NCBI GenBank assembly: GCA_963783375.1
Contig: CAWANH010000029.1
Location: 1,120,001-1,184,000, forward strand
Origin: Candidatus Eiseniibacteriota bacterium
GTDB taxonomy: Bacteria; Eisenbacteria; RBG-16-71-46; JABDJR01
Reading direction: 5' to 3'
Length of the DNA: 64,000 bases
Shown: one piece after another, positions 836-6,581 of the stretch
How positions within the stretch are numbered: position 1 is the first letter of the stretch
How the letters are laid out: each line of letters starts with the position of its first letter
The notes under the pieces: model-generated
Seen by the model: only the letters and a program-made list of their open reading frames with translations
Told to the model about the DNA's origin: nothing
The model's database searches: none
Made by a program: the position numbers and the translations under genes

Positions 836-2812
836 GTGAACCGCATACCCCCGACCCCGAAGCCCGAAGACGTTCCCGGACCGGAGCCCCTGGTGATGGG
901 TCTTGCCGGCTCCCCCCGCCCGGACATCCTGCGTTTTCTCATGGTACAGAAGGCCTGGGCTCCGTCGCTCTTCCCCAGCGGCTCCCACCTGGCGTTCCGT
1001 AGCGACCGGAGCGGCCGCCCCCAGCTCTGGGTGGTGGATACCCGCGGGGGTTGGCCGTCCCAGCTCACCTTCGGGGAGTCGGTGACCGGGCACGCCTGGT
1101 CTCCCGACGGCGCGTGGATCCTCTACGCCTCGGACCGGGGCGGGAACGAGCGGGAGGGCTACATCCTGATCACCCCGGACGGTGTCCGGGAGCGGGAGCT
1201 TCTCCCCCCGTCCGGCGCCTTCCGGGTCTTCGGCGGCTTCTCCCCCGACGGACGCCGGATCGCCTACGCCGAGTGCCCGCCGGAGAGCGCAGCGTTCGAC
1301 ATCCACGTCCTGGACGTGGAGAGCGGAACCGACCGGGTGGTCCTGGCCGGAAGGATGGGGCTCTACGTGGCGGCGTGGCGACCCGACGGCGGGGCGCTCG
1401 TCCTCACCCAGACCCGGGGGGAGGACGCCCAGGACGTCTTCCTGCTCGATCTCGGGACGGGCGGGCTCCGGACCCTGTTCCAACCCGACGAGCCGTCGCG
1501 CCACGATCACATCTCCTGGCTCCCCGACGGAAGCGGCTTCTACCTGGTCACCGACCAGGGGCGCGACCTCGCCGGCCTCGCGTTCTCCCGCCCGGACGGC
1601 GGGGCGCTCGAGTGGGTGGAGACCCCCGCTAACGACGTGGACGCCGCCGAGGTGACCCGCGACGGCCGCTACCTGGCCTGGACGGTGAACGAAGGGGGCT
1701 ACTCGCGCCTGGCGGTCCGGGACCTGGCGGAGAAGCGGAACATCGAGGTTCCTCCGCTCCCGGCCGGGGTCCTGAGCTTCACCTGCGCGGAGCGAGCGCC
1801 CGAGCTGGCGATCGCGGTGACCGGGCCGCGGATTCCCGGGGACATCTGGACCTGGAACCTCGCCACCGGGGCGTTCGGGCGGGCCACCCACTCCTCCCTG
1901 GCCGGCCTGGATCCGGAGCGGATGGCGGTCCCGGAGCACGTGAGCTTTCCCGCCCGGGACGGGGTCACCCTTCATGGGCTCCTCTACCTTCCCGGAGAGG
2001 CGGGTTCGGGGGGGAACGGCCCCGATCCGGCCGGGATCCAGTCGATCTCCGCCGAGGCCTCGGCGGGCGCGCGCCGGGGCCCGGGGAAGCCGCCGGTGCT
2101 CCTGGCCGTGCACGGCGGCCCCACCGCCCAGGCCCGGCCCGTATTCAACCCCGTCCACCAGTATCTCCTGGCCCGGGGGATCGCGGTCCTGGATCTCAAC
2201 TTTCGGGGCTCGACGGGATACGGGAAGGAGTTCGCGCGGCTCGACAACCTCCGTCGGCGGCCCGACGCGGTGCGGGACATGGAGGACGCCCTGGGCTGGT
2301 TGGCCGGGGACGGTCGCACCGACGCCTCGCGCGTCGCGGTCATGGGCGGATCCTACGGCGGGTTCATGACCATGGCCGCCCTTACCACCTTCCCCGGCCG
2401 GTTCAAGGCCGGGGTGGCGATCGTGGGCGTGTCCAACTGGATCACCGCCCTCGAGGGGGCCTCGCCGCAGCTCAGGGCGGGCGACCGGCTGGAGTACGGG
2501 GACGTCGACGACCCCGACGACCGCGCGTTCCTCGTGGAGCTTTCCCCGATCACCCACGTGGGGCGGGTGCGGGATCCGGTCATGGTGCTCCACGGGGCCA
2601 ACGATCCGCGCGATCCGGTGACGGAGTCCGACCAGTTCGTGCGGGGGGTCCGGGAGCACGGCGGCGAGGTGGAATACCTGCGATTCCCCGACGAGGGCCA
2701 CGGAGTCCGGAAGCTCCCGAACCGGGTCATCGCGTATCGGCGGGTCGCCCGGTTTCTGGAGCGGTGCCTGGGGTTGGAGGACGAAGGGCCCGGGTCAGGA
2801 TCTCCGGTATAG
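836..2812 (+). CDS. S9 family (acylaminoacyl/prolyl oligo) peptidase with N-terminal beta-propeller
   Basis: GAGGAGG RBS before GTG; PD40-like WSPDG repeats; VHGGP, nucleophile GGSYGG, HGAND and DEGHG catalytic motifs. Confidence 0.93.
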
Positions 2813-2830: not shown

Positions 2831-3035
2831 GTCATCGTGTTCGCCCTATTGCCCCCTGGGTCAGGACGGCCTAGATTCCCGCTGTAGGCGGGGATACGGA
2901 GGGACCTGTCCCTCACGGCACCGAGGTTGGTCCGTCACCCCGCCTTACCGAAATGGCGGGCGGCGCACGTCTGCGATCCAATAGGCCAAGTAATCGGGGC
3001 ATTGCGTTCCTCGGCTACGGACCTTCACGATCGCC
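2831..3035. ncRNA. Candidate structured RNA (multibranch fold with two potential pseudoknot helices), family unknown
   Basis: Nine complementary pairings found by eye, e.g. 2834-39/3026-31, 2850-55/2996-3001, 2868-73/2982-87, 2921-26/3009-14, 2929-35/3017-23; no credible ORF. Confidence 0.45.
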
Positions 3036-3138
3036 GGGCGTTTGCCCGCCGTGTTTTGCTCGAGGGCTCCGCTCCGGCCTTTCCCCCGGCTAGGGACGGC
3101 AGGGTGTTCCTCCCATCCCGGTTGTTGGTCCCCGGGCT

Positions 3139-3170
3139 CCGGCCCCCGTCCACCGGCGGGGGCCGGTTTT
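3139..3170 (+). terminator. Intrinsic terminator
   Basis: CCGGCCCCCG-N8-CGGGGGCCGG followed by TTTT. Confidence 0.7.
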
Positions 3171-3358
3171 CGTCCCCCCGAGACCCGAGTGATCCCTTCC
3201 TCCCGTGTGACCCATCACTTTCCCCGCGCATCCTTCCTCGGGCGCGTCGAGCGGAGCTATGCTCCACAGGCCCGCCACGGCCCGGGGCGATGAGGAACCG
3301 GCTCCGGCCGGGGCCATGGTCCGGCGGAAGCGGTTCTAGGAACCAGGAGGATCAGTCC

Positions 3359-4132
3359 ATGAGGAAGTTCACGGCGATGGGAATGGCCCTGGCGGTATCG
3401 GCGATCCTGGCGGCGCCGGCGGGGGCGGTCCCCACCGAGGTCACGGTGCGGGTCCTGGCCAAAGGGGCCAAGTTCGTGGGCACGTCGATGGGCGGCGTCC
3501 GGATCACCCTGCGGGATGTGGATACCGGCGAGCTGCTCGCCTCGGGGATCACCGCGGGGAGCACGGGGGACACCAAGCGGATCATGGTGGAGCCGCGCGA
3601 ACCCGGCGCCTCCTACTCCACCGAGGGCTCGGCGGCCTACACCGCGACGATCGACCTCACCCGGCCGCGCCTGATCGAGGTGAGCGCCTTTGGTCCCCTC
3701 GGCCAGCGCCAGGCCGCCAACCGGGTCTCGACCACCCAGTGGGTGATCCCGGGGAAACCCATCACCGGCGGCGACGGGGTCCTTCTCCGGCTCCCGGGTT
3801 TCGCGGTGGACGTTCTCGCCCCCCCATCCCACGTTCGCTTCAAGGACCTTCCTCAAGAGGTGGAGCTCCGGGCCAACGTCACCATGATGTGCGGCTGCCC
3901 GGTCACTCCCGGGGGGCTCTGGGACGCGGACACGTTCGAAGTCGGTGCGCTCCTCATGAAGGACGGGAAGCAGGTCGGCCAGATGACCCTCGAATACGCC
4001 GGGTCGGCCAGCCAGTTCGAGGGCACCTGGAAGGTGGACTCCCCGGGAACCTACGAGGCGGTGGTCTACGCCTATGACCCCGCCGACGGAAACACCGGCC
4101 TGGACCGGACGACCTTCAGGGTCGGGGAATAG
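3359..4132 (+). CDS. Secreted hypothetical protein with MMCGCP motif
   Basis: GGAGG RBS then ATG at 3359; Sec signal peptide MRKF...APAGA; beta-rich mature part. Confidence 0.8.
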   Translation: MRKFTAMGMALAVSAILAAPAGAVPTEVTVRVLAKGAKFVGTSMGGVRITLRDVDTGELLASGITAGSTGDTKRIMVEPREPGASYSTEGSAAYTATIDLTRPRLIEVSAFGPLGQRQAANRVSTTQWVIPGKPITGGDGVLLRLPGFAVDVLAPPSHVRFKDLPQEVELRANVTMMCGCPVTPGGLWDADTFEVGALLMKDGKQVGQMTLEYAGSASQFEGTWKVDSPGTYEAVVYAYDPADGNTGLDRTTFRVGE

Positions 4133-4247: not shown

Positions 4248-4664
4248 TCAATCCTTGGCGTGAATGAGCGGGCACTCGAACCGCTTGACCACCTCGCCGA
4301 TCGAGATGTCGCCGGCCTGGGCCGCGGCCTCGATCTGCTCGGCGTTGGTGAACTGGGTCATGGGGATGTTTTCCCAGGTGATCGGGCGGACTTCCCACCG
4401 CCCACCGCGCCAGTCCCGGTCGCCGGGGGCCGATTCGGACACGTTGGCGAGGGTCCCGCCCAGCACGTAGATGGTGTTGAATTTGCCGTGGTTGGGGAGG
4501 GTGGCCGGAGTGCCGACGGTGCGGTAGGCAACGTCGTGGGCGTAGATCTTGCCGCCGGGAGGACCGACCGGGCCCTTGCCGTTGTTGGCGAAGGCGGGAG
4601 CGGCGGCGAGGGCGGCCACCGCGATCAACATCAGGAAAGCGGACAAGGACTTGGAAAAGCGCAT
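4248..4664 (-). CDS. Small secreted hypothetical protein
   Basis: AAGGAG RBS; signal peptide ending APAFA; GC3-biased codons. Confidence 0.78.
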   Translation of the reverse strand: MRFSKSLSAFLMLIAVAALAAAPAFANNGKGPVGPPGGKIYAHDVAYRTVGTPATLPNHGKFNTIYVLGGTLANVSESAPGDRDWRGGRWEVRPITWENIPMTQFTNAEQIEAAAQAGDISIGEVVKRFECPLIHAKD

Positions 4665-5050: not shown

Positions 5051-5359
<309 letters not shown>

Positions 5360-6082: not shown

Positions 6083-6493
6083 CGGCGGAGGGAGTGGGAT
6101 GGTCGTCCTCAAGCGCCCGTCTCACCCGGCCACCTCCGCCCAACGATCGCCTGCGGAGCTTTCTGGCGGAGGGAGTGGGATGGTCGTCCTCCTCGCCGCC
6201 GCTCGTCGTACGACGTCCCCGAGCGCCCGGCTCTCACGACAACCTCCGCCCAACGATCGCCTGCGGAGCTTTCTGGCGGAGGGAGTGGGATGGTCGTCCT
6301 CCTCGCCGCCGCTCGTCGTACGACGTCCCCGAGCGCCCGGCTCTCACGACAACCTCCGCCCAACGATCGCCTGCGGAGCTTTCTGGCGGAGGGAGTGGGA
6401 TGGTCGTCCTCCTCGCCGCCGCTCGTCGTACGACGTCCCCGAGCGCCCGGCTCTCACGACAACCTCCGCCCAACGATCGCCTGCGGAGCTTTC
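6083..6493 (-). repeat. tRNA-linked tandem repeat array: 3 identical 110-bp units plus a degenerate 81-bp distal unit, each ending in the last ~18 nt of tRNA-Ser(TGA)
   Basis: TGGCGGAGGGAGTGGGAT at 6164, 6274, 6384 and 6494 (the tRNA); decayed copy at 6083 with an internal deletion. Confidence 0.95.
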
Positions 6494-6581
6494 TGGCGGA
6501 GGGAGTGGGATTCGAACCCACGGAGCCTTTCGGCTCATCGGTTTTCAAGACCGACGCCTTCGACCGCTCGGCCATCCCTCC
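6494..6581 (-). tRNA. tRNA-Ser(TGA)
   Basis: Acceptor GGAGGGA/TCCCTCC-G-CCA; anticodon arm TCGGT-CT-TGA-AA-ACCGA; variable arm GAGCC-GAAA-GGCTC; T-arm GTGGGTTCGAATCCCAC. Confidence 0.97.

Follow-up and report, generated by a model that had tools for sequence, protein, structure and literature searches.

Does the intergenic DNA downstream of an S9 prolyl-oligopeptidase-family gene (836–2812, plus strand) hold a structured RNA and, if so, what is its fold, on which strand does it lie and what might it do? The locus is on contig C29 of a Candidatus Eisenbacteria genome (G000), about 2.2 kb from tRNA-Ser(GCT), and is numbered here within the window, the 64,000-nt stretch of DNA that was analyzed. 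The earlier note had proposed a non-coding RNA of about 200 nt in front of a strong plus-strand terminator, in which three nested long-range helices (P1, P2 and P3) close a multiloop with four hairpins and two further helices (PK1 and PK2) form pseudoknots.

The proposed double-pseudoknot fold

All ten helix strands and all hairpins of this proposal are present in the sequence, and the terminator is found at 3139–3166 with a U-tract behind it. The lack of a known family was also borne out: Rfam 15 gives no match for the locus at gathering score or at E ≤ 10 apart from chance matches (E 7.7–9), and at the homologous loci too the best nearby matches are at chance level.

A 205-nt stretch of the locus contains 10 perfect stems 6 bp or longer, seven of which share no residues. 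Seven disjoint stems also occur in 2 of 300 dinucleotide shuffles and in 4 of 300 GC-matched genome windows, which makes the stretch mildly unusual. The same count occurs in at least 19 of the 312 non-overlapping tiles of the window (a lower bound, at most 22 stems per tile having been used); most of these tiles are GC-richer, and two have a GC content of 0.63 or less. Anyone scanning 64 kb will therefore encounter such stretches. The folding beyond shuffled controls expected of such an RNA was not seen either, the 211-nt region being no better than its controls (z −1.19 on the plus and −1.34 on the minus strand).

Nested folding of the sequence extended to 3060 gives each of P1, P2, P3, PK1 and PK2 a pair probability of about 0, and enforcing P1–P3 costs about 10 kcal/mol (−88.5 versus −98.6). 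Since nested folding is blind to pseudoknots, the test in homologs weighs more. A blastn search over 61 relatives returned one informative match, in genome G001 (75% over 2968–3039), and a second homolog was obtained from the syntenic region of G003. On the alignment, P1–P3 keep 1–4 of their 6 pairs and the pseudoknots 3–4 of 6–7. An alignment-free test in these two genomes showed that, for 8 of 10 homologous 3' strands, the 183 nt upstream offer no partner of full length; partners of the PK1 strand do exist in the homologs, at scattered and unrelated positions. G003 has two 7-bp matches near the places of P2 and P3, set in another register, and none were found in G001; we count these matches as chance in GC-rich DNA. 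PK1, PK2 and the three nested helices thus fail the homolog test, and their 3' strands pair instead within a covarying rod at 2953–3052.

Strain variants also speak against the proposed helices. In public assemblies C2836A, present in runs X3 and X7 from two studies, breaks P1 on contigs that stop short of its partner, and T2935C, found in X7 on a contig of depth 2.5 that includes its partner, disrupts the last pair of PK2; the variant contigs have depths of 2.5–3.5, and these breaking variants were taken from the differences listed. What speaks for the 200-nt multiloop with its two pseudoknots, whether as the functional fold or as a regulated alternative fold in this species, is that all five long-range helices are perfect matches of 6–7 bp and that the duplexes taken in isolation score −9.4 (PK1) and −11.2 kcal/mol (PK2). 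Against the failed reproduction in G001 and G003, the two variants, the frequency of stem-rich tiles and the complete unfolding of the rod that it would require, we consider the double-pseudoknot reading largely refuted and scarcely credible in either role.

A conserved rod at 2953–3052

The rod occurs at a fixed position in three of four genomes of one genus (G000, G001 and G003), with a single copy in each. The assembly of the fourth, G002, has a gap of about 7.7 kb here, at which the contigs on both sides stop, and its lack of a rod is uninformative. Alignment scores exceed chance only for a 66-nt core (49–76 against about 13, with 0 of 300 shuffles reaching them), and local alignment of the flanks gives p values of 0.40, 0.11 and 0.03 upstream and 0.42, 0.28 and 0.86 downstream for the three genome pairs. 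The proposed extent of about 200 nt therefore fails on both sides: its 5' half (2831–2950) is unconserved and the conserved fold reaches 3052. The non-conserved intergenic segment 2831–2952, to which we assign no strand, is the one that bears the 5' strands of the proposed helices. Fourfold-degenerate sites in flanking orthologs are only 53–61% identical, so that a 15-mer of the core that is invariant in all three genomes (2972–2986) implies selection.

The rod itself is an irregular structure of about 100 nt, described here as plus-strand RNA, and the segment 2948–3058 folds with a z of −2.49. In its outer helix the 5' arm 2953–2972 pairs with the 3' arm 3036–3052 over about 17 bp, including G-U pairs and a bulge; across the three genomes the helix has about 15–17 bp. 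The conserved core consists of a 5' arm (2972–2989), which begins with the invariant 15-mer, and a 3' arm (3019–3034), and contains an internal loop of CCAAU (2978–2982) opposite ACG (3027–3029, with C3028 predicted to bulge). An apical stem joins 2990–2999 to 3009–3018 with a pair probability of 0.93 and carries a variable loop (3000–3008). The order of elements is shared: outer helix, GCGAUC helix, internal loop, AGG/CCU helix, small purine loop and variable-loop apical stem, with a largest central loop of 4 × 4 nt. A U-rich tract (3053–3058) follows the rod in all three genomes.

Covariation supports this fold. The sequence of the outer helix cannot be aligned between species and its pairing is preserved, with 9 of 14 aligned pairs changed on both sides; in the apical stem this holds for 2 of 7 aligned pairs, and in the core C2987–G3020 becomes U-A in both homologs. 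At the matching position G001 and G003 have perfect outer stems of 10 bp and 12 bp whose sequences are unrelated, which would be hard to obtain otherwise. Of the cells in the alignment of the three sequences, 91% pair, and two-sided changes occur at 12 of 31 pairs, a number reached by 0 of 500 shuffles while slid controls give 0–2; these controls take no account of relatedness, and the same three sequences served to derive the structure. Folded singly, each homolog adopts this rod as well, with z between −2.5 and −4.3. None of the 17 strain differences listed breaks a rod pair: two lie within the rod, one in a loop and the other, C2971U, turning C-G into U-G, and ten cluster at 3053–3104, just 3' of it. 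Taken together, we hold with high confidence that the rod is a real conserved structure. An uncatalogued structured RNA ahead of the terminator thus does exist, probably on the plus strand, but its architecture and boundaries differ from those first drawn.

Two repeated sequence features were noted around the core. In all three genomes TTCGCC, followed by a strand complementary to the CAAUAGGC of the core, lies 133–178 nt 5' of it (2840–2851 here, with 5–8 possible pairs), which may reflect chance or a weak long-range contact that is conserved. In G001 and G003 the core word CGAU(C/G)CAAU recurs 20–21 nt downstream, inside the apical stem; this second copy is degenerate in G000.

The core contains a predicted C-loop

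The internal loop of the core can be read as CCAAU*ACG and is identical in 3 of 3 genomes. PMC4551918 describes a C-loop as a five-base strand opposite a strand that reads A...G, in which 0–2 bases may be inserted between A6 and G7; it shows one instance in which a bulged C occupies this place, and it accepts CCAAU*AG as a variant of helix 15. In three dimensions a C-loop would have the crossing non-canonical pairs C2/A6 and 4/7. With C at position 2, a closing U-A and a short strand of the form A-(0–2 nt)-N, the loop of the rod agrees with the sequence criteria and is predicted to be a C-loop; an 8-mer of this kind can also arise by chance. Instances of RNA 3D Motif Atlas entry IL_73276.5, from 16S helix 15 and T-box stem I, share with the rod a CCAAU closed by C-G and U-A as well as a short strand A-(C)-G. 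The C-loop is a motif and not a family, and the likeness is one of sequence pattern. In T-box stem I it is described in PMC7583486 as a flexible hinge with no known partner.

By analogy with helix 15, the RNA could be a genus-specific decoy that copies the C-loop of 16S rRNA on a free-standing rod and would titrate a ribosomal or ribosome-assembly protein. S16, the ribosomal protein that binds helix 15, would be the first candidate. The 16S rRNA of G000 itself reads GCAAU, followed by a G-rich helix, and the literature search found no description of an rRNA-mimicking trans regulator of such a decoy kind. We treat this idea as a long shot. A separate suggestion, that the core originated as an rRNA fragment, was rejected after no significant alignment to the rRNA region of the genome was obtained (p 1.0 and 0.16).

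Strand and expression

The earlier note had left the strand ambiguous. In G000 the plus strand of the rod is more stable than the minus strand (−49.7 versus −44.1 kcal/mol, an advantage of 5.6) and contains 7 G-U pairs; in G001 the minus strand folds equally well (−41.8 versus −41.4 kcal/mol). The C-loop string is found on the plus strand only, terminator-like sites lie in the same orientation in G000, G001 and G003, and no minus-strand terminator appeared in our scans. The C-loop string, the G-U pairs, the energy in G000, the variant that preserves pairing as U-G and the same-orientation terminators thus favor the plus strand, short of proof.

The same data bear on whether the locus encodes a small RNA that regulates by base-pairing, or one that is read from the minus strand. 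In favor of these readings, the 3' arm of the core is rich in pyrimidines and bears a loose likeness to an anti-Shine-Dalgarno sequence, and the minus-strand rod folds stably (z −2.1 to −3.6). However, the conserved bases are themselves paired with probabilities of 0.93–0.99, the 5' arm has no outstanding near-complement, and the 20 sites that resemble the 3' arm with two mismatches look like ordinary GC-rich matches. With the C-loop string confined to the plus strand and the scans for a minus-strand terminator empty, we find such an RNA quite unlikely.

On the plus strand, the intrinsic-terminator-like hairpin at 3139–3170, which has same-orientation counterparts downstream of the rod in G001 and G003, is the likely 3' end of the primary transcript. 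A candidate sigma-70-type promoter (TTGCCC-17-TAGATT, 8/12; 2849–2877, plus strand) was read by eye; it is below the cut-off of the promoter scanner and its position is not conserved, and the scanner passed 0 promoters at the locus in G000, G001 and G003.

Expression was assessed in a salt-marsh metatranscriptome, where one 230-nt contig covers 2898–3125 at depth 6 with 8 differences, the 7 listed all falling within 3053–3092. In a 20-kb control it is the longest of 32 placed pieces, and the 8 of these that are listed include coding pieces of 87–151 nt at depth 2–3 and a tRNA piece. This run was picked for containing the rod stretch, its contigs carry no strand, ends or level, and DNA carry-over is possible. 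Because of the choice of run, and because a DNA contig also ends at 2898, we take the RNA contig as a weak hint of expression that defines no ends.

Distribution of the rod

Searches beyond the genus returned no further copy. Model R1 (101 genomes) and model R2 (150 and 10 genomes) gave strong scores only in G000, G001 and G003. Two pattern searches over 206 genomes of the phylum matched 15 and 5 genomes, all chance beyond the three true ones, and a scan of a genome collection recovered only the two known homologs in G001 and G003. At the syntenic interval of G004, from the FlgD-domain gene to tRNA-Ser, there is another gene and no rod, and nothing was found in the flanks at the syntenic position of G005–G007. 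Scans with 17–19-mers produced 1 viral and 10 metagenome matches, all judged to be chance. A gapped viral scan yielded at least 120 loci, 80 of which were scored with R1 (best 18 bits) while a script ranked the 120 listed, with none credible among the matches listed; a stricter viral pattern gave 0 matches, and blastn against phages and plasmids gave chance matches only. As a whole-genome search with RF00013 missed a true 6S RNA, the negatives of whole-genome RNA searches are weak, and diverged copies of the rod may also have been missed. The literature within our coverage, which lies outside subscription journals, yielded no description of the rod RNA.

Genomic setting and possible roles

A 30-kb comparison revealed a single orthologous block in G000, G001 and G003 in which the gene content around the element varies. 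The S9 gene is at the locus in G003 and absent there in G001. The downstream neighbor (3359–4132, plus strand), which encodes an uncharacterized 257-aa protein with a signal-peptide-like start, is found in G001 and not in G003, whose locus also lacks the FlgD-domain gene. Kept in all three genomes are the element and a convergent gene (4248–4664, minus strand) for a 138-aa protein of no family, again with a signal-peptide-like start; this gene and the rod occur in the same 3 of 10 order-level genomes, and the protein has no relative among the viral contigs searched. The conservation of the rod is thereby independent of both neighboring genes. A plus-strand gene ends 160–205 nt 5' of the core in all three genomes, and its identity differs between them.

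The variability of the locus raises the question of whether the rod is a DNA-level or ssDNA hairpin left by recombination or a mobile element beside tRNA-Ser. Genes have been gained and lost on both sides, the tRNA is 2.2 kb away, and tolerance of G-T pairs fails to separate RNA from ssDNA. On the other hand, the rod is present once per genome at a fixed position in three diverged species, no integrase or transposase is among the window genes examined around it, and the viral, phage and plasmid collections hold no true match, which together leave this origin highly improbable.

Tandem repeats occur nearby. Arrays at 5051–5285 (109 bp, 2.2 copies) and 6104–6511 (110 bp, 3.7 copies) both contain repeats of a tRNA-Ser gene's 3' end; in G001 and G003 these tRNAs are likewise accompanied by related arrays, which differ in copy number. 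The arrays resemble known tRNA-linked repeat arrays such as that behind tyrT of E. coli. A 26-bp sequence 5' of the 257-aa gene (3308–3333), with 96% identical copies in G000 (C28:67132–67157) and in G002, is a possible regulatory site.

The 257-aa protein has an MMCGCP motif and 2066 relatives and matches no family in Pfam or NCBIfam. Proteins P0001 and P0002 are 94% and 82% identical to it, respectively. Its gene is found in 2 of 206 genomes of the phylum, plus one weak partial match, and plasmid homologs lie near redox and stress genes (dsbB, catalase, dps, cydBX, ArsR). The rod could be a cis-acting leader, either riboswitch-like or a protein-gated attenuator, that gates terminator read-through into this gene. 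Rod, terminator and gene follow in this order in G000 and G001, and in G001 the start codon is only about 45 nt past the terminator; in G000 a hairpin at 2939–2960 competes with the outer helix, and 3045–3051 could pair with the 3' arm of the terminator. Yet the core is intact in G003, where the gene is missing, the genomes have no antiterminator in common, three homologs of the gene on plasmids lack a rod in their vicinity, and the terminator of G000 stands about 190 nt before the start codon. A leader function is therefore unlikely in our judgment.

The upstream side suggests another role, in which the rod has no promoter of its own and is the 3'-end module of an upstream transcript, serving as stabilizer, processing site or source of a 3'UTR-derived RNA. 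A plus-strand gene lies 160–205 nt upstream in every case with no terminator listed between them in the scans, and the U-rich tract directly behind the rod would suit such an end. This role, too, appears improbable: the upstream gene is a different one between genomes, a plain stabilizer needs no invariant core and, as a weak point, the RNA contig spans the rod while no long piece covers the S9 gene.

We give about even chances to a further explanation, a plus-strand small non-coding RNA of which the rod would be the functional module and the core a candidate protein-binding site; this model, in which we infer the strand, transcription, C-loop geometry and protein binding of the rod, draws on only three independent sequences. 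The transcript would end at the 3139–3170 terminator or at the U-tract after 3052. The near-invariant core, read as a shape, would sequester or scaffold a protein, and the freely varying outer and apical helices would merely hold it in shape. Invariant bases inside a helix, a variable apical loop and a 15-mer almost without look-alikes (one with ≤2 mismatches elsewhere in the genome, both strands counted) argue for protein binding over base-pairing. An invariant non-canonical center with variable helices and apex fits a protein site better than a pairing seed or a leader. Our searches found no protein partner of the rod.

Comparison with known RNAs

The SRP, RNase P and tmRNA copies of G000 are located elsewhere, with no such match at the rod. 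The resemblance of one 12-mer to the M-box has no Rfam support. 6S RNA had been suspected when the whole-genome RF00013 search came back empty and was dismissed once a canonical 6S was found behind zapA. The latter lies at 1227–1407 (minus strand) of locus L088, near 533,300 on C29 of G000, between zapA and a ymdB-like metallophosphoesterase gene, and scores 80 bits. Like 6S RNA (RF00013), which is a long irregular rod acting by protein binding, the element is rod-shaped, but it has no large central bubble and about 100 nt are conserved as against about 180.

T-box stem I (PMC7583486) resembles our rod, with its predicted C-loop, in being an irregular rod of about 100 nt that has an internal C-loop and lies 5' of a terminator. 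Unlike it, our rod has by eye no K-turn, no S-turn/specifier and no double T-loop apex, its apex is variable, and it comes with no conserved antiterminator, no amino-acid gene downstream and no Rfam match. The raiA RNA is described in PMC12968392 as having a closing P1 in three parts and two pseudoknots, all of them conserved; with about 200–250 nt, a three-segment P1 and two pseudoknots it resembles the earlier proposal, whereas the pseudoknots of the rod region are unconserved and no Rfam match exists. The rod is closest in status to lineage-restricted orphan structured RNA motifs known from comparative genomics (for example the 224 motifs of PMC5737381), which are also intergenic and covarying with no assigned function; it differs from them in sequence and structure and in being found in three species of one genus so far.

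Several other classes were considered and set aside. Bacterial Y RNA was discarded since G000, which is 97% complete, has no match to PF05731 (TROVE, Ro60/Rsr), and a dispersed repeat of the REP or ERIC type because G000, G001 and G003 hold one rod copy each. For a riboswitch or cis leader one would expect a same-strand gene downstream throughout; it is present in 2 of 3 genomes and missing in G003. A small peptide was rejected by eye: a minus-strand frame reads LAYWIA in all three genomes, with no shared start, differing upstream frames and invariant third positions. Inverted ATCG/CGAT words with spacers of 14–18 nt are too variable for a DNA operator.

Implications

We regard the rod as a new RNA family, narrow in distribution and familiar in kind, that Rfam does not cover. 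Its distribution over three species of one genus and the lack of a named partner limit its importance for now. The locus further illustrates clearly how a pseudoknot model that convinces on a single sequence can fail against homologs. For a phylum that is uncultured and has almost no RNA literature, the finding supplies an uncatalogued structured RNA whose consensus fold is defined, and the invariant core of this RNA is a small target suited to probing and pull-down.
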